A stretch of DNA of 38,923 nucleotides from a virus: the UHGV virus genome UHGV-0153024. One strand, written 5' to 3'. Made by a program: the position numbers and the translations under genes. The notes beneath the pieces are model-generated. The model was given only the letters and a program-made list of their open reading frames with translations. It was not told the DNA's origin and did not search any database. The stretch's first letter is position 1, and each line of letters starts with the position of its first letter. Positions 2,177-30,044 of the stretch are shown in pieces.

Positions 2177-2707
2177 TTACCTTAATTTATCAAGCTCTCG
2201 TTTATTTCTTTTATCATGTATATCATTAAGAAATAATATATTACTAGCAATGATACTAAATAACGCTATTATTTGTAGATATACTAATAACGCTGTGATA
2301 AAAAATCCAAACTTGCAGAACACGTGCTTATGCAAGGAAATGAAATCCAGATTTGAAAATATAGGTTTCGTTAAATTTATTATAACAATAGAAAATATTA
2401 CAATAGCTGAAATTATAATGGTTTTCACTATCAGCGTAATTCGCTCAATATCTTTTTCTGTTTCCTTATGATAGTTTATACTAGTTATTGTTGATGGCTT
2501 TACAATTGAACTTACAGCTGCAGGGTAAATATATGCAAGCCAAATACCTGCAATAGTGAAGATCATTGCAGAAATGTTTTGCAAGGTAGATAAAATATCT
2601 TTTATATCTGCATACGTATATTTGTCTCCGAACAAATAAGCAATAGCTATAATTGTTAGGAGAAAACATATGTGCAAAATTTTAGGTTTTATAATCATAC
2701 TATGCAC
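2177..2707 (-). CDS. Small integral membrane protein (176 aa, about four predicted TM helices); candidate RexB-like effector
   Basis: Four hydrophobic segments (ILHICFLLTIIAIAYLF; AMIFTIAGIWLAYIYPAAV; ITLIVKTIIISAIVIFSIVIINL; FGFFITALLVYLQIIALFSIIASNILFL); very AT-rich; start overlaps the upstream 400-aa gene by 8 nt. Confidence 0.6.
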   Translation of the reverse strand: MHSMIIKPKILHICFLLTIIAIAYLFGDKYTYADIKDILSTLQNISAMIFTIAGIWLAYIYPAAVSSIVKPSTITSINYHKETEKDIERITLIVKTIIISAIVIFSIVIINLTKPIFSNLDFISLHKHVFCKFGFFITALLVYLQIIALFSIIASNILFLNDIHDKRNKRELDKLR

Positions 2708-3902
2708 CTATTTTATGAATCTGCACTGCTGTATCATTATCAGCTTCTGGTTGTTCTATTATATCTTCATTTTTAAAACAATTCACCAAATCATTTCTAT
2801 GAGCTTTTACCACACTCATTAAATATGAAGAAGAGTAATGTTTGTTTCTGTTAGAAAGGTCAACGTGAATTTCATGGCGATAAACATATTCATCTAACCA
2901 AGTAGTTGAACCATTTTTCCCATTTATTTTGAATCCGATGCGTGCGTGATCATTCCCTACATTCTCATTGTTGTTTTCTGTATCTTCTGAAATAGGATTG
3001 TGGTTTTCTATATATTCATCGATGAGTTTAGTGAACTCTTCAGGCGTAGGCGTTCCTTCGACTAATAATTCAACGCGATGTTTTTTTGATAAAATAGGAG
3101 AGCTTCTTGAGAAAACATCTCCAACTGCATCAAATAACTTCTGCCATTTTTCCCGTGTATCAGGTATGTTTGTTTCTATTACGTCATGGTAAACAATGTG
3201 AGTGATTTTTTTACACAGTTCTTCTATGTTTGCTCCACTCGTGATCATCCTTGTTTGTTTAGTCTGTACTTTAAAAACTAAACTTTCATCATCACCTTGA
3301 GAAAAAAGAACACGTTTGTAATGAACGTCTTCAGGTGAGTCATTACGAGGACGAGTCATATCTATGACTTTTTTATTAGGATGCTCCATCCTAAAGTCAA
3401 CGTATGCTTTAATATAATGACAGAAAAGATCTGTATCCGTATTAGAACTTGGGAATCGTATGGATGCAATTTTGTTATATTCTGGAATTACCCAATAGTA
3501 GCAAGGTACGCCCCAGATATATTTACCGCCACCTTGAGTATCAGAGGCGGATACAACATTATCTGAAGTGCCGTCAATCTTACTTTCAGCATCTATACCT
3601 TGAATATTTCCAGAGTTATCACCAAGCGTTTTCCAGATAACAAATAGATAATCTCCTGTCGTACTGTCATATGAAATATTTTTACAGTATGCTTTTGTTC
3701 TTCTATTATTATCCTTTCCCCATGGAACAGATTGTTCAACTGTTCTTGAACAGATCCAGCTATGTAAGTTACACAGAACATGGGATAAGTTCTTTTCGAC
3801 TAATTCCGGCGATTTGCCTTGTCGTATTTTATAAAGGCCAAACATTTCTAAATCAAAAAATGTTATAATGCCGCGTTCAGTTTTAAAGTTGGTTTTACTC
3901 AT
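2700..3902 (-). CDS. Hypothetical protein (400 aa), first gene of the repressor-linked cargo operon
   Basis: Long AT-rich ORF directly downstream of, and co-oriented with, the CI-like repressor; purine-rich RBS (GAAGAGAAG) upstream of the ATG; no recognisable catalytic motif by eye. Confidence 0.65.
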   Translation of the reverse strand: MSKTNFKTERGIITFFDLEMFGLYKIRQGKSPELVEKNLSHVLCNLHSWICSRTVEQSVPWGKDNNRRTKAYCKNISYDSTTGDYLFVIWKTLGDNSGNIQGIDAESKIDGTSDNVVSASDTQGGGKYIWGVPCYYWVIPEYNKIASIRFPSSNTDTDLFCHYIKAYVDFRMEHPNKKVIDMTRPRNDSPEDVHYKRVLFSQGDDESLVFKVQTKQTRMITSGANIEELCKKITHIVYHDVIETNIPDTREKWQKLFDAVGDVFSRSSPILSKKHRVELLVEGTPTPEEFTKLIDEYIENHNPISEDTENNNENVGNDHARIGFKINGKNGSTTWLDEYVYRHEIHVDLSNRNKHYSSSYLMSVVKAHRNDLVNCFKNEDIIEQPEADNDTAVQIHKIGA

Positions 3903-3982
3903 TGTTATTGCTTCTCTTCACCTTTTAAATCTTTCGCTTAATATAATCACTTCTATTAGAATGACATTTGTTGAATGTCACT

Positions 3983-4864
3983 TTAATTCGAAATGATTGT
4001 GCTTCTTATGCATGCAACTACCTCGATATCAGAAAATGCACATTCAAAGTAAGTTTCTTTACTTCTGATATTTATCATACCTTTAGGTAGCCTAGTAATT
4101 TGTCTGACGGAATAGGTTCCATCAATATTAATTAACCAGTATCCATCTAATACATCAGAAAATTTCTGATCACAGATGTATGCCACTAAACCATCCTGAA
4201 CGACAATTGGTGCTGAAAGATTAGCGGGTAAAAATGACGAATCGAAAATATATGAGCCACTCTCAACCATTTTGCCTGCATTGAGATGAAATTTAGGCAG
4301 TTCTTTTACCGATGTTGTGAGAGCATTGTGCTCGCTGCCTTGTCCAGTGGCTAGCCATAAAAGAGAATTTCCTGTTTCCAACGAACATTTTATGATCCAA
4401 TCAGCCGGGAATGTGTCTCGCAAATATCTATTTGCCATAGTGCTTTTAGATACATTCAGATGGTCGGCAAGTTCTTGTCTTGTTTTAAAGCCATACGCTT
4501 TCATTAGCCTGTCTATTGCATCACGTCCGCCTGAGTCAAAATTCAGATCGTTCCCAATTGGGGACTTCAGGGTGGTGGCTTGGGAAACGTGCTGAACCTT
4601 TGATGCAGTTGCCTTTGACATGACCGGAGCCTCAGTACTCTGAGGGAATGGTACGCCTTTTCCGAATGAGAGCCACTCGATAGATGCACCCGTTTCAATT
4701 GCACACTGAATTACCCAGTCAGCAGGAAATACGTCACGCATCCAGCGCGTGCCCATAGTGCTTGCAGATACGTTGAACTGTTCGCACAGAGCTTGCCTTG
4801 TCTTGAATCCATACGCTTCAAGCATGCGCGTTATGACTGCTTGTCCTCCGTTTTTGAAATTCAT
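3983..4864 (-). CDS. CI-like immunity repressor with tandem-duplicated N-terminal DNA-binding domain
   Basis: 293 aa; two similar ~60-aa segments (MLEAYGFKTRQALCEQFNVSASTMGTRWMRDVFPADWVIQCAIETGASIEWL and LMKAYGFKTRQELADHLNVSKSTMANRYLRDTFPADWIIKCSLETGNSLLWL) resembling the phage 186 CI-type HTH; divergent from the Apl/Cox-like gene. Confidence 0.75.
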   Translation of the reverse strand: MNFKNGGQAVITRMLEAYGFKTRQALCEQFNVSASTMGTRWMRDVFPADWVIQCAIETGASIEWLSFGKGVPFPQSTEAPVMSKATASKVQHVSQATTLKSPIGNDLNFDSGGRDAIDRLMKAYGFKTRQELADHLNVSKSTMANRYLRDTFPADWIIKCSLETGNSLLWLATGQGSEHNALTTSVKELPKFHLNAGKMVESGSYIFDSSFLPANLSAPIVVQDGLVAYICDQKFSDVLDGYWLINIDGTYSVRQITRLPKGMINIRSKETYFECAFSDIEVVACIRSTIISN

Positions 4865-11481: not shown

Positions 11482-13059
11482 ATGGATATCAACTATGTTG
11501 TTTCAAAAATGGGGTTCGTAGATGATCTTATTAATGCAGGTTCATTTGATTCTGCCTATAAAAATGTAAAGGATATTCTTAACGGTATCGATGAGATAAA
11601 TACAATCAAAGAAAATAGAATAATTATATTATCTAATTTGGCCGGAAATCTTATTGATATCGGAAATTTTAGTAATGTAAAAAATATAGCGGAGGAAGGC
11701 TTAAATATCTTTATAAACAATAAAAATGAATTTCTGACTATAATGAAAGAATCTTTATATTACTATAACTTGGCAAATGGAATGAGCGCAGTTCTTGATT
11801 TTAATCCTAATGACAATGCAGATATTGATAGTTTCATTAAGCTGAATGATGTAAAAAATAATTACTGGAAAGCGTTTAAACTTTCACAAGAAGATGGATG
11901 GGTGCCCCCTGATTTAATAGTTAATCTAGCTAATGTATTAAAAAAACAATATCGTATATCTGAATCAATGGATTATTATGAACAAGCAATATCTATTGAT
12001 AACTCAATTCCTCAGGCGTGGGTAAACAGATCTGAGGCATTAGAATTGCTTAATGAATTATCTACAACATATACATATAAAATGATTAAAGAAGTTATTC
12101 GAGGTTATGAGTGTGCAATAAAGTCAGGGAAATGTTTTCCTTCATGGAAGATTGCTCTTCAAAGAAAAATAAAGTACAACGAAAGTATATTGAGTGAATC
12201 ATGTGTATATGGCATAGAGGATATAAGTACAGATGAAAGGCTCACGCAGGAGGAGTATGATACTTTATCAAACTACCAGAGGTTTTGTATAGATAATAAT
12301 CTAATGTTGTCTGATCATTCGCTATATTGCAATTGTTATGCGTCATCTAAAGATAATATAACTATTGCGACCACCGAGGAAGGTGTGTTTGGTGATTTTA
12401 TAGTGCCAATGGAAATGGTGTTAAATAGACTTAAAGCTGAGTATTCCTTAGCACGAAAAATGTTTTTTGAATATAAGGTTGATAGTGAGTTTTTTGATGA
12501 GGATTCGGAGGTATGTTATTCTGAATTGTATAATGGAGAAATATTGTATGAAAATGTTGAGAAGTTAAGGGTTGCATTTAGAGCTTGCTTTGGTATCTTG
12601 GATAAAATAGCAGTTGCTCTGTGTCAATTATTTGATTTAAAACCAGATAGAGGACATATATACTTTCATAACTTCTGGCGGATTAGTGATGAAAAAAGAA
12701 AGCTTAAAATAAACAAAATAAATAATAAAGGATTGCTGGGTTTGTTTAGTATTGCTATGGATTTGAATGATAAAAATGGTGAGCTTGCTTTTTTTAAAGA
12801 ATGGAGGAATGATTTAGAACATAAACTGTTAGTTATTCACGAGAAAGACATGTTAGTTGATTTATATAATTCTTATGGATTTTTTGATGAGATGAGGTTT
12901 ATTGAGAAAGAAAAGTTTGAGAAACAGCTCTTACAACTCATGAAAATTGTGAGATCAGCCGTTATTCTTTTTGTGTTTACCATACGTATAGAGGGGAAAA
13001 AAAGTATTCCTAAAGATATGTTGACCATTAAAAATACCATCGAGAGAAAAGTATTGTAG
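11482..13059 (+). CDS. Orphan 525-aa protein with N-terminal TPR-like repeats and C-terminal HEPN-like Rx4H motif; candidate anti-phage defence gene
   Basis: AT-rich island in the A-cos hotspot; TATAAT at 11441-11446; RBS AGAGGA 5 nt before the ATG; helical-repeat N-terminus (YYEQAISIDNSIPQAWVNRSEALELL); motif W-R-N-D-L-E-H at codons 441-447 (nt 12802-12822); own terminator. Confidence 0.8.
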   Translation: MDINYVVSKMGFVDDLINAGSFDSAYKNVKDILNGIDEINTIKENRIIILSNLAGNLIDIGNFSNVKNIAEEGLNIFINNKNEFLTIMKESLYYYNLANGMSAVLDFNPNDNADIDSFIKLNDVKNNYWKAFKLSQEDGWVPPDLIVNLANVLKKQYRISESMDYYEQAISIDNSIPQAWVNRSEALELLNELSTTYTYKMIKEVIRGYECAIKSGKCFPSWKIALQRKIKYNESILSESCVYGIEDISTDERLTQEEYDTLSNYQRFCIDNNLMLSDHSLYCNCYASSKDNITIATTEEGVFGDFIVPMEMVLNRLKAEYSLARKMFFEYKVDSEFFDEDSEVCYSELYNGEILYENVEKLRVAFRACFGILDKIAVALCQLFDLKPDRGHIYFHNFWRISDEKRKLKINKINNKGLLGLFSIAMDLNDKNGELAFFKEWRNDLEHKLLVIHEKDMLVDLYNSYGFFDEMRFIEKEKFEKQLLQLMKIVRSAVILFVFTIRIEGKKSIPKDMLTIKNTIERKVL

Positions 13060-24220: not shown

Positions 24221-24818
24221 TCTGCTGCCATCGGGGTCAACTTCACTGGAGCGCCGACTGGCGCAAACGTGCAGCGGGATTTCTGATCTGCAGGTGCCGC
24301 TTCGTGACTTGTGGAATCCGGCAACCTGTCCGGTCAGTTTCCTGCCTTATCTCGCCTGGGCGTTCTCTGTGGATCGCTGGGACGAGGGTTGGACAGAAAG
24401 CGTCAAGCGCCAGGTGGTGAAGGATGCTTTTTATATTCATCAGCATAAAGGGACCGCCAGTGCCGTGCGGCGGGTGGTGGAGCCGTTCGGATTCCTGATC
24501 CGCATTATTGAGTGGTGGCAGACCGGAGAAACACCGGGCACGTTTCGCCTGGATATCGGCGTGCAGGACCAGGGCATCACTGAAGATACCTATCTGGAAC
24601 TTGAGCGACTGATAAGCGATGCCAAACCATGTAGCCGCCACATGATCGGCATGTCCATCAATCTGCAGACCAGCGGCCCGCATTGGGTGGGAGCCGCCAG
24701 CTATCTTGGCGAAGAAATCACGATCTATCCGTATATCAACGAAACGATTATTTCTGGTGGCACCGCGCATGAAGGCGGGGCGGTCCATGTTATTGACACA
24801 ATGAGAGTGAATCCATGA
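24213..24818 (+). CDS. I: Baseplate protein I (P2 gpI-like)
   Basis: 201 aa; between J and H. Confidence 0.8.
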   Translation: MNSLLPSGSTSLERRLAQTCSGISDLQVPLRDLWNPATCPVSFLPYLAWAFSVDRWDEGWTESVKRQVVKDAFYIHQHKGTASAVRRVVEPFGFLIRIIEWWQTGETPGTFRLDIGVQDQGITEDTYLELERLISDAKPCSRHMIGMSINLQTSGPHWVGAASYLGEEITIYPYINETIISGGTAHEGGAVHVIDTMRVNP

Positions 24819-25876
24819 GCACAAAATTTTATACCCTGCTGACGGATATTGGCGCGGCGAAACTTGCCAGCGCCCCCGCGCTCGGTGTGCCGCTAAAAAT
24901 TACCCATATGGCGGTGGGCGATGGCGGTGGAGTATTGCCAACGCCGGACGCAAAGCAGACGGCACTGGTAAATGAGAAACGCCGGGCTGCGCTGAATATG
25001 CTTTATATCGACCCGCAGAACAGCAGCCAGATTATTGCCGAACAGGTGATCCCTGAAAACGAGGGCGGTTGGTGGATACGTGAAGTGGGCTTGTTTGATG
25101 AGTCCGGGGCATTGATTGCCGTGGGCAACTGCCCGGAAAGCTATAAGCCGCAACTGGCTGAAGGTAGCGGGCGCACTCAGACCGTGCGCATGGTGCTGAT
25201 TACCAGCAGCACGGACAATATCACCCTGAAAATCGACCCTGCTGTAGTGCTGGCAACCCGCAAGTATGTGGATGACAAGGCACTGGAGCTGAAGGTTTAC
25301 GCGGATGATCAGATGGCAAAACATCTTGCCGCACCGGACCCGCATTCACAGTACGCGCCAAAAGCCAGCCCGACATTTACCGGAACCCCCAAAGCGCCAA
25401 CGCCAGCGGCGGGGAATAATACCACGCAGGTTGCGACCACTGCGTTTGTACAGGCGGCACTGACGGCCCTTATTAATGGTGCGCCAGCCACGCTGGACAC
25501 GCTGAAAGAAATAGCCGCAGCCATTAACAATGATCCGAATTTCAGTACCACCATTAACAATGCGCTGGCACTAAAAGCACCGTTGTCGAGTCCGGCACTC
25601 ACCGGAACGCCAACAGCCCCCACGGCGGCGCAGTCGGTCAACAATACACAGATTGCCACTACGGCTTTTGTGAAATCGGCGATTGCAGGAATGGTGGGTT
25701 CTGCACCTGCTGCACTGGATACACTGAACGAACTGGCGGCGGCACTGGGGAATGATCCGAACTTTGCCACGACAATGCTTAATGCGCTGGCAGGTAAACA
25801 ACCGCTGGACAATACGCTTACCAATTTGAGTGGAAAGGATGTAGCTGGTCTTCTCACATACCTTGCTTTAAGATGA
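24815..25876 (+). CDS. H: Tail fibre protein H, N-terminal (constant) part only, 353 aa
   Basis: Strong resemblance to the first ~350 aa of P2 H (AAKLA, MAVGDGGG, ESYKP.LAEGSGR.QT.RMV, DTLNELAAALGNDPNFATTM.NALAGKQP) but terminates after LTYLALR; P2 H is about 670 aa. Confidence 0.8.
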   Translation: MSTKFYTLLTDIGAAKLASAPALGVPLKITHMAVGDGGGVLPTPDAKQTALVNEKRRAALNMLYIDPQNSSQIIAEQVIPENEGGWWIREVGLFDESGALIAVGNCPESYKPQLAEGSGRTQTVRMVLITSSTDNITLKIDPAVVLATRKYVDDKALELKVYADDQMAKHLAAPDPHSQYAPKASPTFTGTPKAPTPAAGNNTTQVATTAFVQAALTALINGAPATLDTLKEIAAAINNDPNFSTTINNALALKAPLSSPALTGTPTAPTAAQSVNNTQIATTAFVKSAIAGMVGSAPAALDTLNELAAALGNDPNFATTMLNALAGKQPLDNTLTNLSGKDVAGLLTYLALR

Positions 25877-25965
25877 GAGTAGTAAACCCCTGTCCCGACG
25901 CCATGATACTATCGACTCATGACTCCTGAGTGTGTACCATTAACACAAAAAAATTGAGGTACATA

Positions 25966-27048
25966 ATGAAAAAAGTATTGATAGTTAGCTTGGTGGGCAT
26001 CGGAGATCACTTATTATCACGAGTATTCATGAAATCACTCCGCGATGATGAAAAATATAAGCACGCTAAATTCACCTTGCTTGGCAACACTGCATTCAAA
26101 GATTTTTCTCTCAAGTTTGATATGAATATATTTAATCATTTCATTTGGGTTGATTGTAATAAGGTTACTCCTTATGTGCAAACCAAAGAGAGCACATATA
26201 CTAAGATTAAAAATAAAGCCATCAGGTTTTACATCAGAAATTTAATTAAGCACTCAAATTTCGATGAGATTATAGTTCCAGATTGGTGGGGTGCGTCAAC
26301 TACTTTGCGTGTTACTCCATTTATCTCTAGTGTGAGGGATAGAGCCATCATCAATGGTATGAATATACCTGACCATCAAAGGGAGTTTTTTGGCTATTCC
26401 ACAAAGCCGGATATTGATTTTTCAAAGCATGTCCTGGATATGAATAAAGAGTTTTTCTCTGAGATTATACCATTTCCTAAATTCGAAGTTGAAATTCCAC
26501 TAAAAAATAAAAATAAAGACAGTGGCAAGATTGATATTTGCATTTCACTGGGAGCCTCTGCGCCTTTTAAAAAATACCCTGTATTACAATTAGCAAATGT
26601 AATAAACAGCATATCATCTTCATACAATGCCAATTTTAAAATCATTGGCTCCAATGATGAAATTTCAGATTACAATGTTCTTATTGAGCATATCGATAAC
26701 AAGGATATTGTAGCAGGTTTTGTTGGAAGGACTACATTATCTGAGTCGTGCGATATTGTTCTTTCATCTGAACTTTTGATTGCAAACGACACAGGCATGT
26801 TCCATGTTGGTGCTCTGGCAGGGATTAAAACTGTTTGTATTTCGAATGGTACTGGTTTGCATGCATTTGTGCCATACCCTGAGGAATTTTCGAACTGTAT
26901 TACGGTTTTCCCACCAGAGATACAAAACAAGGTAGGCACAAAAGATTTTATAAATGCACATGGCTGGTCTGGCTCAGCAATTCCGATGTCGAATATATCA
27001 CCAGACGATGTTCTTGCGGCTTGTTATAAATTGCTAAATAAAAAATAG
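25966..27048 (+). CDS. Glycosyltransferase family 9 (heptosyltransferase-like)
   Basis: GT9-type motifs: N-terminal KVLIVSLVGIGDHLL (cf. WaaC ILIVKTSSMGDVLH), central GASAPFKKYP, C-terminal ELLIANDTGMFHVGALAGIKTV (cf. VSVDTGLSHLTAALDRP); AT-rich; RBS GAGGT 5 nt before the ATG. Confidence 0.7.
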   Translation: MKKVLIVSLVGIGDHLLSRVFMKSLRDDEKYKHAKFTLLGNTAFKDFSLKFDMNIFNHFIWVDCNKVTPYVQTKESTYTKIKNKAIRFYIRNLIKHSNFDEIIVPDWWGASTTLRVTPFISSVRDRAIINGMNIPDHQREFFGYSTKPDIDFSKHVLDMNKEFFSEIIPFPKFEVEIPLKNKNKDSGKIDICISLGASAPFKKYPVLQLANVINSISSSYNANFKIIGSNDEISDYNVLIEHIDNKDIVAGFVGRTTLSESCDIVLSSELLIANDTGMFHVGALAGIKTVCISNGTGLHAFVPYPEEFSNCITVFPPEIQNKVGTKDFINAHGWSGSAIPMSNISPDDVLAACYKLLNKK

Positions 27049-27058
27049 ATGAAGTAAT

Positions 27059-27454
27059 TCAAGCTGGCTTTTCCGGCCAGCTAATCTCTGCATTAGTGTT
27101 AGCGTCAATCCTGCTCAGCAATACCCGGTATTGCTTCCACAATGGCAGCGCTACGGTTTCTGCATCTGTCGCCATACTCAAATCAACAGCATCCTGTAAA
27201 ACGCTAATCTGTTGTGTCGCCTCACTCATCAGTGCGTTTTTTGTAGCCAGATTATTGGCTATTTTCTGCTGTTTTGCTGCCTCAAGTTCTTTATTAGTTG
27301 GCGGTGGCGCACTAAAAACATCGTTATCGTAATGCCAGCCGATACCAACACCATCGGTAGAGAGAATGGCACTTGCTGATTCAGGCCACTCTGACTCGCC
27401 ATCCCAGATAACAATATTTTCTACGATACCATTTTTGATAATTGCATAGTTCAT
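27059..27454 (-). CDS. Tail fibre assembly protein (Tfa-like chaperone)
   Basis: C-terminus LPLWKQYRVLLSRIDANTNAEISWPEKPA matches the conserved Tfa C-terminal motif (cf. lambda Tfa ...[22 protein letters not shown]...). Confidence 0.7.
   Translation of the reverse strand: MNYAIIKNGIVENIVIWDGESEWPESASAILSTDGVGIGWHYDNDVFSAPPPTNKELEAAKQQKIANNLATKNALMSEATQQISVLQDAVDLSMATDAETVALPLWKQYRVLLSRIDANTNAEISWPEKPA
27062..27082. terminator. Hairpin (AGCTGGC-loop-GCCAGCT) between the convergent GT9 and Tfa genes
   Basis: 7-bp stem with loop TTTTCCG, 14 nt after the GT9 stop and abutting the Tfa stop; candidate bidirectional terminator. Confidence 0.4.
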
Positions 27455-28135
27455 TTACGCATACTCCAAAATAATAATCACGCCAGCATTGCCCGGGTTG
27501 CCGTTGACATTCTGCGCCCCACCACTGGTTGCAGCGCCATTACCACCAGCACCATACCCACCAGGGCCAGAAATAAAGCTGCCGCCGCCAAGACCGGAAC
27601 CTACAGTCCCTCCGACTGCTGTTGGGGTTGCCATCACACCGGGTAGCCCGGCGTACCCGTTGCACAAAAGGGCACCCACGGTCGAAGTGCCACCCTGACC
27701 GCCCATGCCACATGACGCAGAGGAACCTGACGCGGTGCAGCCGTTGCCTGGCTGGCCTCCACCTGCTGAGAGATAAGAGCCAAAAGTCGTCGTGCCGCCC
27801 TGTGTACCATTGGTTATCGTCGACGCAATACCGCCATTACCACCCGCACCAATCGTGACAAGCACGGTTGATATCGCAGACAGGTTAAAGAGACCGCGTG
27901 CCATTCCACCGCCACCACCACCGCCACCCGCTGCGTTATAGTTTCCTGTGGAAGTTGCCCAGCCGCCGCCCCCACCGCCCCCAATAGCGATGACATCCGC
28001 GAACATTGCTCCGGGAGTTTTGGTGTAAGTGCCAGACGTCTTGATTATCTGCATGCCAATCAGACGACCGACTGCGCCGTTATTTACTAAACCAACGTTT
28101 ATGAAAATGCAGAGATAACGGCTAACTGGCATCAT
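27455..28135 (-). CDS. Glycine-rich tail fibre distal (receptor-binding) segment, inverted relative to H
   Basis: 226 aa with long poly-Gly/Gly-rich repeats; directly upstream of the co-oriented Tfa; adjacent to the DNA invertase, as stfE-tfaE-pinE in e14 and the Mu G segment. Confidence 0.65.
   Translation of the reverse strand: MMPVSRYLCIFINVGLVNNGAVGRLIGMQIIKTSGTYTKTPGAMFADVIAIGGGGGGGWATSTGNYNAAGGGGGGGGMARGLFNLSAISTVLVTIGAGGNGGIASTITNGTQGGTTTFGSYLSAGGGQPGNGCTASGSSASCGMGGQGGTSTVGALLCNGYAGLPGVMATPTAVGGTVGSGLGGGSFISGPGGYGAGGNGAATSGGAQNVNGNPGNAGVIIILEYA
28080..28107. other. Candidate Hin/Gin-type recombination (crossover) site
   Basis: TTATTTACTAAACCAACGTTTATGAAAA has the AAACC-NN-xGTTT core and flanks resembling hix/gix sites; lies 50 nt upstream of the invertase gene, inside the 5' end of the inverted fibre ORF. 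Confidence 0.35.
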
Positions 28136-28156: not shown

Positions 28157-28729
28157 ATGATCATGCTTATTGGCTATGTACGCGTGTCAACAAATGACCA
28201 GAACACCGATTTGCAACGCAATGCACTGAACTGTGCGGGATGTGAGCGGATTTTTGAGGATAAAATCAGTGGCACCAAGTCCGACAGACCGGGGCTGAAA
28301 AAGCTGCTCAGGACACTATCGGCAGGAGACACGCTGGTTGTCTGGAAGCTGGACAGACTGGGGCGCAGTATGCGGCATCTTGTTACGCTGATAGAAGAGA
28401 TGCGCCAGCGTGGCGTGAATTTCCGAAGCCTGACTGACAGTATTGATACCAGCACCCCAATGGGCCGTTTCTTTTTTCATGTCATGGGTGCCCTGGCTGA
28501 AATGGAACGCGAACTGATAGTTGAACGTACCAGGGCGGGGCTGGCTGCAGCTCGTGCTAAAGGCAGAGTAGGTGGACGCCGTCCTAAGTTGACCAGCGAA
28601 CAGTGGGCACAGATTGGGCGTTTACTCGAGGCCGGAGAATCAAGACAGCGTATTGCACTGATTTTTGATGTAGGCGTTTCTACCATTTATCGAAAATTTC
28701 CGGCAAATAAGAACAATAAATCTCCCTGA
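28157..28729 (+). CDS. Serine DNA invertase (Hin/Gin/Pin/Cin family)
   Basis: 190 aa; N-terminal catalytic motif MLIGYVRVSTNDQNTDLQ (active-site Ser), conserved core, C-terminal HTH (VSTIYRKF). Confidence 0.9.
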   Translation: MIMLIGYVRVSTNDQNTDLQRNALNCAGCERIFEDKISGTKSDRPGLKKLLRTLSAGDTLVVWKLDRLGRSMRHLVTLIEEMRQRGVNFRSLTDSIDTSTPMGRFFFHVMGALAEMERELIVERTRAGLAAARAKGRVGGRRPKLTSEQWAQIGRLLEAGESRQRIALIFDVGVSTIYRKFPANKNNKSP

Positions 28730-28871: not shown

Positions 28872-30044
28872 ATGGCTCAGGATTACCACCACGGGGTGCG
28901 CGTTGTTGAAGTCAACGAAGGCACCCGAACCATTACCACGGTGAGCACCGCCATCGTGGGTATGGTCTGCACGGGCGATGATGCCGATGCAAAAATGTTT
29001 CCTCTTAATAAACCCGTGCTGATCACTGATGTGCTGACTGCCAGCGGTAAAGCGGGTGAGTCAGGCACGCTGGCTCGTTCGCTGGATGCCATCGCTGACC
29101 AGGCAAAACCCGTGACCGTTGTTGTGCGTGTGCCGCAGGGTGAAACGGAAGAAGAAACCACGACCAATATCATCGGAGCAGTGACCGCTGAAGGTAAAAA
29201 AACAGGCATGAAAGCCCTGTTATCTGCCCAGTCACAGCTCGGCGTTAAACCGCGCATTCTCGGCGTGCCAGGTCACGACACGAAGGCGGTAGCTACTGAG
29301 TTGCTGAGCGTGGCGCAAAGCCTGCGTGGATTTGCTTACCTGTCAGCGTATGGTTGCAAGACAGTGCAGGAAGCAATCACTTACCGTGAAAACTTCAGTC
29401 AGCGTGAAGGAATGCTGATCTGGCCCGACTTTACTGGCTGGGACACGGTGCTGAATGCCGAAGCAACGGCTTATGCCACCGCCCGTGCGCTTGGTCTGCG
29501 CGCCAAAATTGACGAGCAGACCGGATGGCACAAAAGCCTGTCCAACGTGGGCGTTAACGGTGTCACCGGAATTTCTGCTGATGTGTTCTGGGATCTGCAG
29601 GACCCGGCAACCGATGCGGGACTGCTGAACCAGAACGACGTCACCACCCTTATCCGCAAAGACGGTTTTCGCTTCTGGGGTTCCCGCTGCCTGAGTGATG
29701 ACCCGCTCTTTGCCTTCGAAAACTACACCCGCACGGCGCAGGTGCTGACGGACACGATGGCAGAAGCGCACATGTGGGCGGTGGATAAACCGCTGAATCC
29801 GTCGCTGGCCCGCGACATTATCGAGGGTATCCGCGCCAAAATGCGCAGCCTGGTCAGTCAGGGCTATCTCATTGGTGGTGATTGCTGGCTGGATGAGTCG
29901 GTGAACGACAAAGACACGCTGAAAGCCGGAAAACTCACCATCGACTACGACTACACGCCAGTGCCGCCACTTGAAAACCTGATGCTGCGTCAGCGCATCA
30001 CCGATCAGTACCTGGTGAATTTCTCCAGCCAGGTCAGCGCGTAA
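28872..30044 (+). CDS. FI: Tail sheath protein (P2 gpFI-like)
   Basis: 390 aa (P2 FI about 396 aa); RBS AGGAGG upstream. Confidence 0.9.

Follow-up and report, generated by a model that had tools for sequence, protein, structure and literature searches.

A predicted GT9-family glycosyltransferase gene occupies one arm of a Gin/Pin-type invertible tail-fibre segment in a P2/186-like Escherichia coli prophage

The virus genome UHGV-0153024 (38,923 nt; the whole stretch that was analysed is called the window here) is a P2/186-like Escherichia coli prophage in which the tail-fibre gene H is under the control of a Gin/Pin-type DNA inversion switch. In this switch, a gene for a predicted family 9 glycosyltransferase (GT9) stands in place of one of the two arms that consist of a fibre tip and its chaperone, and the replacement reaches as far as the crossover site. 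Invertible tail-fibre segments are classical examples of host-range switching, and to our knowledge all described segments carry fibre tips and chaperones only. The explanation that we prefer for the locus as a whole, and to which we give slightly better than an even chance, is an inversion switch in which GT9 has taken the place of a fibre arm and modifies an envelope glycan.

The invertible segment extends over 2,229 bp between the cores of two crossover sites (25865-28093) and carries GT9, Tfa and a glycine-rich tip. The left crossover site (25851-25876) reads TTCTCACATACC-TT-GCTTTAAGATGA, with its outer half in H and its inner half moving with GT9, and the right site (28082-28107) reads ATTTACTAAACC-AA-CGTTTATGAAAA and is inverted relative to the left one. 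A scan of the whole 38.9-kb window with the half-site consensus returned two matches only, which are these 26-bp sites (12-2-12, inverted). H itself is present as a stub of 353 aa (24815-25876, plus strand; PF12571 Phage_tail_fib, E = 2e-64), in which the constant N-terminal part is followed by the residues ALR and a TGA stop codon, all encoded by the inner half of the left crossover site. The minus strand of the segment encodes the Tfa chaperone (27059-27454; 131 aa; PF02413 Caudo_TAP, E = 4e-23) and its partner, the glycine-rich tail-fibre tip (27455-28093 within the segment, also given as 27455-28135; PF21722 Gly_rich_2; PHROG 863/6202 tail-fibre families). This tip represents the variable C-terminal part of H and is silent in the orientation of the window. 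A tblastn search of phage records with the glycine-rich tip found none, possibly owing to low-complexity masking, and we draw no conclusion about the receptor from it. The invertase gene (28163-28729, alternative start 28157, plus strand) encodes a serine DNA invertase of the Gin/Pin family (188 aa; PF00239 Resolvase and PF02796 HTH_7) that shares 74% identity with Mu Gin (3UJ3) over 183 aa (E = 2e-92).

Inversion of the segment between the cores in silico joins H to the tip in frame (...GLLTYL-GLVNNGAVG...) and results in a protein of 562 aa, which is the length of H annotated in strains CT29 and EC21Z-137. When aligned to the E. coli CT29 prophage, the window falls into three pieces, of which 25860-28095 is reversed; once this piece is inverted, the two are colinear over 13,440 bp at 96.8%. 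Homology with other loci stops at 25860-25870, in the left site. A table of junctions from 15 loci shows that the inner half-sites stay with the segment and that the outer half-sites swap partners exactly at TT/AA. The locus thus exists in two states, both of which were seen in complete genomes and in draft assemblies. In state A, represented by the window, the 353-aa stub is followed directly by GT9 in the late tail operon, with no chaperone downstream. In state B, represented by other strains, the 562-aa H with the glycine-rich tip is followed by Tfa, and GT9 is oriented convergently to the tail operon and divergently to the invertase gene. Where the invertase has exactly the protein sequence of the window, state B is found at L022 (and two similar places), L028 and L029, and state A at L023, L024 and L025 (each with one similar place) and at L027. 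Since prophages that share this invertase show both states, what the earlier note on this DNA had described as a truncated H is the fibre-OFF face of a working switch and not a sign of decay: the stop of the stub lies in the crossover site, and flipping restores the 562-aa H in a state that is found in nature.

The earlier note had correctly located the gene between the 353-aa H and an inverted Tfa/tip pair, which it took for an inverted module beside an inserted moron; the pair is in fact part of a Gin/Pin-type segment in which GT9 replaces a tip and Tfa arm. A decayed prophage, with H truncated, Tfa and tip inverted by rearrangement and GT9 inserted at the Z/fun hot spot, agrees with the positional description only. 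We find it barely credible in view of the precise reciprocal junctions at two 26-bp sites, the intact Gin-like invertase, the near-identical prophages that show both states, the in-frame 562-aa H that results from inversion, and the presence of the same cassette in an e14/Mu-like element; the inversion in silico, the colinearity with CT29, the junctions and the two states already refute it. The assignment to the position of Z/fun also has to be given up. We take this cargo locus of P2 to lie between the tail-fibre assembly gene G and the sheath gene FI, but GT9 lies between H and Tfa inside the segment, and it is the invertase, not GT9, that abuts the sheath gene at 28872. Moreover, the e14/Mu-like backbone that carries the same cassette is not of the P2 type.

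Among the places displayed, two are fibre-ON without an intact invertase, L011 and L013. In L011 (E. coli NH-21, 3638-4800), an IS3-type transposase is found where the invertase should be. L013 (3185-4859) is rearranged: its invertase is truncated to 115 aa and continues into other sequence, the tip/Tfa pair is joined by a further one, and an open reading frame (ORF) of 140 aa adjoins GT9. The outer half-site of L013 differs (CATTTTCAAAGG) and is the same as that of L021. Three IMG/VR loci (L094, L095, L124) have canonical segments with duplicated arms and runs of N. On this indirect evidence they look like orientation-mixed populations, with inversion ongoing within the samples.

Canonical P2-like relatives (AR_0085 and APEC E19025) show what the GT9 arm replaces. 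They have H, composed of a constant and a variable part (Sc and Sv), followed by Tfa, then a second pair, Tfa' and Sv', on the other strand, and then the invertase. Their H-side site is TTCTCACATACC-TT-GGTTTAAGAGCA and is read on as GLRAS..., whereas the inner half-site of the GT9 arm, GCTTTAAGATGA, is slightly diverged and codes for A-L-R-stop. The fibre frame therefore ends within the recombination site and no tip remnant is left. About 45 IMG/VR loci share the site on the invertase side; their segments mostly measure 1.1-2.0 kb, a few 2.6-3.7 kb, and their minimum GC content is 0.40-0.46. Among the segments examined for non-fibre cargo, including the longer ones, we found just tip/Tfa pairs, larger tips, one IS3-type insertion and mixed-orientation assemblies. 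The GT9 arm is the sole cargo seen that is neither a fibre gene nor an insertion sequence, with no other case noticed in the approximately 45 related segments.

In its architecture the switch resembles Mu G/Gin, P1 C/Cin and e14 P/Pin. The serine invertase lies just outside the segment, the 26-bp sites are inverted and have a 2-bp core, the constant N-terminus of the fibre is joined to a variable tip that is followed by a chaperone, and P2-like and e14/Mu-like backbones can exchange the cassette. The difference is that one arm holds a tip and a chaperone and the other a separate glycosyltransferase with no fusion to the fibre, so that the switch of the window yields a functional fibre in one position and a stub in the other and does not choose between two host ranges. 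By every tested feature it is a member of the Gin/Cin/Pin family, except that the fibre is made from one orientation only.

The GT9 gene (25966-27048, plus strand) starts with ATG at 25966 and ends with TAG at 27046-27048; its product of 360 aa has the same sequence as WP_032277884.1. The sole Pfam match of the protein is PF01075 (Glyco_transf_9), with 30.4 bits against a cut-off of 22 over residues 141-292. An AlphaFold2 model built from 44 relatives has a mean predicted local distance difference test (pLDDT) score of 80 and a predicted template modelling (pTM) score of 0.83, and consists of two Rossmann-like halves, i.e., a GT-B fold. In a Foldseek comparison of this model with the PDB, the best nine matches are all GT9 enzymes, with TM scores of 0.57-0.71; they include 3TOV, WaaF (1PSW) and WaaC (2H1H, 2GT1 and 6DFE). 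The profile of the subfamily to which the protein belongs matches 3TOV (E = 5e-20), WaaF (2e-17), WaaC (2e-8) and TibC 4RB4 (E = 0.006). Alignment to WaaC, WaaF and 3TOV places D14, K202, E232 and the stretch D275-T-G-M-F-H280 opposite D13, K192, E222 and D261-H266 of WaaC. In WaaC, D13, K192, E222, D261 and H266 are catalytic residues and residues that contact ADP-heptose, and D(T/S)(G/A)xxH is the heptosyltransferase signature (PMC3559599, PMC5713226). By profile, predicted fold and signature the protein is thus a member of the GT9 family, and the earlier note had rightly read the 360-aa, AT-rich gene, which is intact, as GT9.

The likeness to WaaC, WaaF and WaaQ (2H1H, 1PSW, 3TOV) covers the predicted GT-B fold, PF01075, the N-terminal G-D with the catalytic base, the equivalents of the lysine and glutamate, and the signature. 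The differences are as clear: in the structural alignments by Foldseek the GT9 of the window is 13-18% identical to these enzymes, it falls into a separate subfamily found mainly in Bacteroidota and Ignavibacteria, frequently within polysaccharide clusters, and it is borne by a prophage outside the waa locus. The subfamily comprises proteins of roughly 385 aa (1,941 representatives at E <= 1e-30), some of which are fused to pyruvyl-transferase or GT2 domains. GT9 differs from the subfamily consensus at many positions, and its D-T and K match, at the sequence level, the classical pattern of L,D-heptosyltransferases. Its 90% cluster contains E. coli sequences only, under the name "glycosyltransferase family 9 protein" given by the Prokaryotic Genome Annotation Pipeline (PGAP). 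Every other relative is at most 30% identical, and the closest two (27%) are located within polysaccharide clusters together with GT2, GT4, methyltransferase and pyruvyl-transferase genes. None of the PADLOC families matches GT9 at E <= 0.001. On two unrelated Bacteroidota-like contigs, a distant GT9 homologue is divergent from a gene for a DUF502 membrane protein (L002, 7356-9206; L003, 7440-9308); these contexts are uninformative on function.

With 360 codons, the GT9 ORF exceeds the longest stop-free run of 164 codons in 1000 shuffles of the same bases and is therefore no chance product. Its GC content is 0.356, compared to 0.552 for the constant part of H, 0.584 for the fibre tip and roughly 55% for the tail region, which fits horizontal acquisition of the gene. 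As noted earlier, the gene has its own ribosome-binding site (RBS), GAGG at 25956-25959, 6 nt upstream of the ATG. Besides this RBS, the leader (25877-25965, plus strand) contains weak promoter-like sequences: TCGACT-17-TACCAT at 25912-25940 and an extended -10 element, TGaTACTAT, at 25904-25912, each of them a consensus match only. Calls of the start codon differ (25930-26029). Translation from ATG 25966 gives 360 aa, and translation from M22 gives the 339 aa that are used in the cluster members P0009 and P0013 and in the call for L022; a GTG further upstream would yield 372 aa. The catalytic G13-D14 motif is kept only in the 360- and 372-aa forms, and the RBS is found only at ATG 25966.

Between the convergent genes GT9 and tfa lies a GC-rich hairpin with an 8-bp stem (27062-27082) that overlaps the last tfa codons. 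Its folding energy is -16.3 kcal/mol in a context of 61 nt (z = -2.4). The hairpin that the earlier note had placed after the stop codon therefore exists. We rejected it as a terminator, as it has no U-run, was not flagged by the terminator scan and sits within the tfa coding sequence; for a transcription unit boundary at this position it provides weak evidence. The sequence TTGACA-19-CATGAT at about 28160-28200 (minus strand) is antisense to the opening codons of the invertase gene; it has a perfect -35 element and is again a consensus match only. This candidate promoter faces into the segment and would read the orphan tip and Tfa in state A and GT9 in state B.

The two states raise the question of whether inversion switches GT9 on and off, so that fibre and surface modification would be coupled in the same or in the opposite sense. 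This could be brought about either by the late tail promoter, acting on GT9 in state A only, or by a fixed outward promoter beside the invertase gene, acting in state B. In Mu-type switches the late transcript reads only the arm that adjoins the constant part and, by analogy with G(+) and G(-) of Mu, GT9 would be expected to lie on the late tail transcript in state A. In line with this, the terminator scan found none between the H stop and GT9. The candidate TTGACA-19-CATGAT is aimed at GT9 in state B, and both states are common in nature. However, the outward promoter has a spacer of 19 nt and is known as a consensus match only. Late expression in state A would coincide with particles that lack fibres and are presumably non-infectious, which offers no gain to the phage, and the related glycan-modifying cargo of other genera is located in fixed, non-invertible loci. 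We regard a phase-variable enzyme as rather unlikely.

The distribution of the cassette shows that GT9 travels with the tip. Of 5,426 complete E. coli genomes, five contain GT9, and these five are also the ones that contain the tip/Tfa pair. Altogether, 1,053 genomes match part of the 1.6-kb query, and the partial matches listed are confined to the conserved 3' end of the constant part of H. The exact GT9 sequence is listed for 288 contigs and was also found in 442 index blocks. In strains TUM14664 and 102651, an e14/Mu-like prophage adjacent to rclC has the same cassette after a StfP stub of 100 aa, and inversion in silico there results in an in-frame fusion of 309 aa. Ten copies of the segment (L001, L006-L009, L011, L013, L015, L020, L021) each differ from the window at 5-40 positions between 27383 and 28067, all of which, save one in tfa, are within the tip gene. 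This pattern points to a single recent acquisition, with a tip that has diversified by recombination and a GT9 gene that has stayed frozen. As had been surmised before, GT9 is not standard phage cargo: tblastn against 50,697 phage records gave no match, PHROGs has no family for it, IMG/VR holds two identical copies only, and searches of phage and plasmid collections yielded no useful information on GT9. We found no earlier description in the literature of this protein accession, of heptosyltransferases in prophage tail loci or of cargo in invertible segments, and two papers on P2 hot spots mention neither glycosyltransferases nor invertases.

Relatives of Tfa with 50-60% identity are found in prophages of Rahnella, Pantoea, Erwinia and Enterobacter, and the genes that follow these fibre/Tfa pairs bear on the role of GT9. 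In Enterobacter roggenkampii (L134-L136), a convergent gene for a GtrII-family glucosyltransferase follows a Gly_rich_2 fibre and Tfa. In Pantoea agglomerans (L130-L132) an Acyl_transf_3 acyltransferase gene, and in Rahnella perminowiae (L128-L129) genes for a GT4+GT2 protein and a pyruvyl transferase, come after the related fibre/Tfa. The Pantoea and Enterobacter elements with this slot are Mu-like prophages. These contexts suggest that the slot after fibre and Tfa is a general cargo site for surface-glycan modifiers beside the receptor-binding module. Because related slots hold surface-glycan enzymes, we infer by analogy that envelope-glycan modification is the most likely role of GT9.

The invertase exchanges strands at the central TT/AA of both 26-bp sites and thereby flips the 2.2-kb segment. 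In the mechanism that we propose, GT9, a predicted soluble GT-B transferase of the cytoplasm, would most likely be transcribed from the weak signals that travel with the gene. Its donor is probably ADP-L,D-heptose of the host, because every residue known to matter in WaaC is kept. The sugar would probably be added at the cytoplasmic face to a precursor of an envelope glycan, i.e., the lipopolysaccharide (LPS) core or an O-unit. The altered surface of the lysogen could then mean lysogenic conversion, or masking of a receptor against the prophage's own or other phages. State A would be a tolerated fibre-OFF by-product of retaining a working crossover site beside the cargo.

On this proposal GT9 would correspond in function to the genes for GtrII, the acyltransferase and GT4/GT2 that follow the related fibre/Tfa pairs. 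Like these conversion genes (GtrII, Acyl_transf_3/Oac-like, GT4/GT2), it is AT-rich and occupies the same slot after a glycine-rich fibre and Tfa, often in convergent orientation, and the expected effect is likewise a modified LPS or O-antigen that phages use as a receptor. Unlike them, GT9 is predicted to be soluble and lies in an invertible segment, whereas the other genes encode membrane proteins of the periplasmic side or members of other glycosyltransferase families and stand in fixed loci. GT9 is not a Gtr/Oac-type module, as it has no match to integral-membrane GtrC/GtrII or to Acyl_transf_3 and its model is a soluble GT-B protein. P2-like tailocin loci of Xenorhabdus provide a further parallel, with glycosyltransferase genes in an invertible tail-fibre region for which the authors propose LPS self-protection (bioRxiv 10.1101/2025.04.19.648921). 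There, too, the xbp1 locus combines a P2-type tail module with glycosyltransferase/mannosyltransferase genes among the fibre genes and a fragment that is apparently inverted between strains. The differences are another genus, a tailocin, a locus without an invertase gene and glycosyltransferases not stated to be GT9, and we found no relationship to the protein of the window.

The strict co-inheritance of GT9 with the tip and Tfa would also be expected if GT9 were a protein heptosyltransferase like TibC/Aah that acts on the glycine-rich tip or on another virion protein, and the subfamily profile does match TibC 4RB4 weakly. This match is far weaker than those to 3TOV, WaaF and WaaC, and TibC is outside the top 50 Foldseek matches; on both counts GT9 is not TibC/Aah-like. 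Furthermore, state B expresses the tip but has GT9 antisense to the late operon, and in state A, where GT9 is in the operon, no tip is produced. In related modules one finds membrane-bound enzymes that modify the O-antigen (GtrII, Acyl_transf_3) and no protein glycosylases. Virion glycosylation is therefore very unlikely.

Several observations weigh against envelope-glycan modification by GT9. With the NCBIfam equivalog models of heptosyltransferases I, II and III, the protein reaches 35.8 bits at best, against a cut-off of 134.6 (TIGR02195), and otherwise 14-25 bits against cut-offs of 170-569. Judged by these models it is not an orthologue of WaaC, WaaF or WaaQ, and a role in the inner core cannot be assumed. 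Within the N-terminal domain, residues 116-148, which would be the part that binds the acceptor, have a pLDDT below 50 in the model. In species-representative genomes the subfamily is found in Bacteroidota, Ignavibacteria, Leptospira and one metagenome-assembled genome of Spirochaetota, with no other Enterobacterales, and most of its members have E-S and R where GT9 has D-T and K, which makes the donor sugar of the relatives no guide. Sigma-70 promoter scans upstream of GT9 gave none that is convincing, and the sole 10/12 match overlaps the start codon. In two of five distinct related contexts, the cargo does not act on glycans (umuDC, P63C). Finally, GT9 with its leader (1.2 kb, 25865-27058) has zero differences over the 10 copies, which shows recent spread and says nothing on selection.

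Some of these points would agree with an inert passenger, i.e., foreign DNA that recently replaced a dispensable fibre arm by an illegitimate event and hitch-hikes with a successful tip/Tfa cassette, with GT9 being silent (e.g., as AT-rich DNA silenced by H-NS) or without a substrate in E. coli. The copies of GT9 do not differ by a single nucleotide, the gene is rare (5 of 5,426 genomes), no good promoter was found in the scans, the nearest relatives, which belong to distant phyla, do not exceed 30% identity, and some lineages (L011, L013) have lost the invertase in the fibre-ON state. On the other hand, an ORF of 360 codons in DNA of 36% GC is intact in every copy and has a good RBS, and the catalytic and signature residues are all kept despite many changes at other positions conserved in the subfamily. 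In addition, the cassette is now present in two unrelated prophage backbones, and the analogous slots of relatives hold bona fide conversion enzymes. We therefore judge an inert passenger to be improbable and continue to prefer a glycan-modifying GT9.

A bolder proposal is that the switch has been repurposed, such that the lineage toggles between infectious phage (fibre ON) and expression of an LPS-modifying heptosyltransferase (fibre OFF, with GT9 transcribed along with the tail operon or from a fixed promoter) and makes a heritable and reversible choice between infection and protection. We hold this to be unlikely; if true, the E. coli surface would be phase-variable, and the tip and a receptor-masking enzyme would travel as one portable cassette. 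An effect of Pin-family inversion on the host is known from PinQ and e14 StfE2, where inversion of a prophage tail-fibre segment alters the susceptibility of the host to other phages at adsorption (PMC12529663). In that system the effector is the chimeric fibre produced by inversion, whereas the candidate effector in the window is a separate enzyme gene in the segment.

The presence of an enzyme-bearing arm implies that the machinery that recombines fibre tips is also able to carry non-structural genes from one prophage to an unrelated one and to change their orientation. The natural polymorphism between fibre ON and fibre OFF matters when inducibility to infectious particles is to be predicted from a single assembly. 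If GT9 modifies LPS, lysogenic conversion in E. coli would have a route of the core type that operates in the cytoplasm and is distinct from Gtr/Oac, and the strict linkage of GT9 to the tip would mean that a receptor-binding protein travels with an enzyme that alters the receptor. These considerations are relevant to phage therapy, tailocin specificity and serotyping.

Two further AT-rich regions of the window lie outside the tail locus. On the minus strand at 2177-3902, flanked by the integrase (1065-2096) and the 186-type CI repressor (3983-4864), two ORFs of 176 and 400 aa (32-35% GC) match B and A of the PADLOC candidate defence system PDC-M18 (E = 5e-24 and 2e-36, respectively); neither contains a Pfam domain. 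The window is richest in AT (28-33% GC) at 11482-13059 (plus strand), between replication gene A and the portal gene, an interval that we take to be the old/tin hot spot of P2. This stretch encodes a protein of 525 aa with TPR repeats and, at the C-terminus, an LA2681-like HEPN domain (E = 2.5e-38), which judging by these domains is probably an anti-phage or abortive-infection effector.

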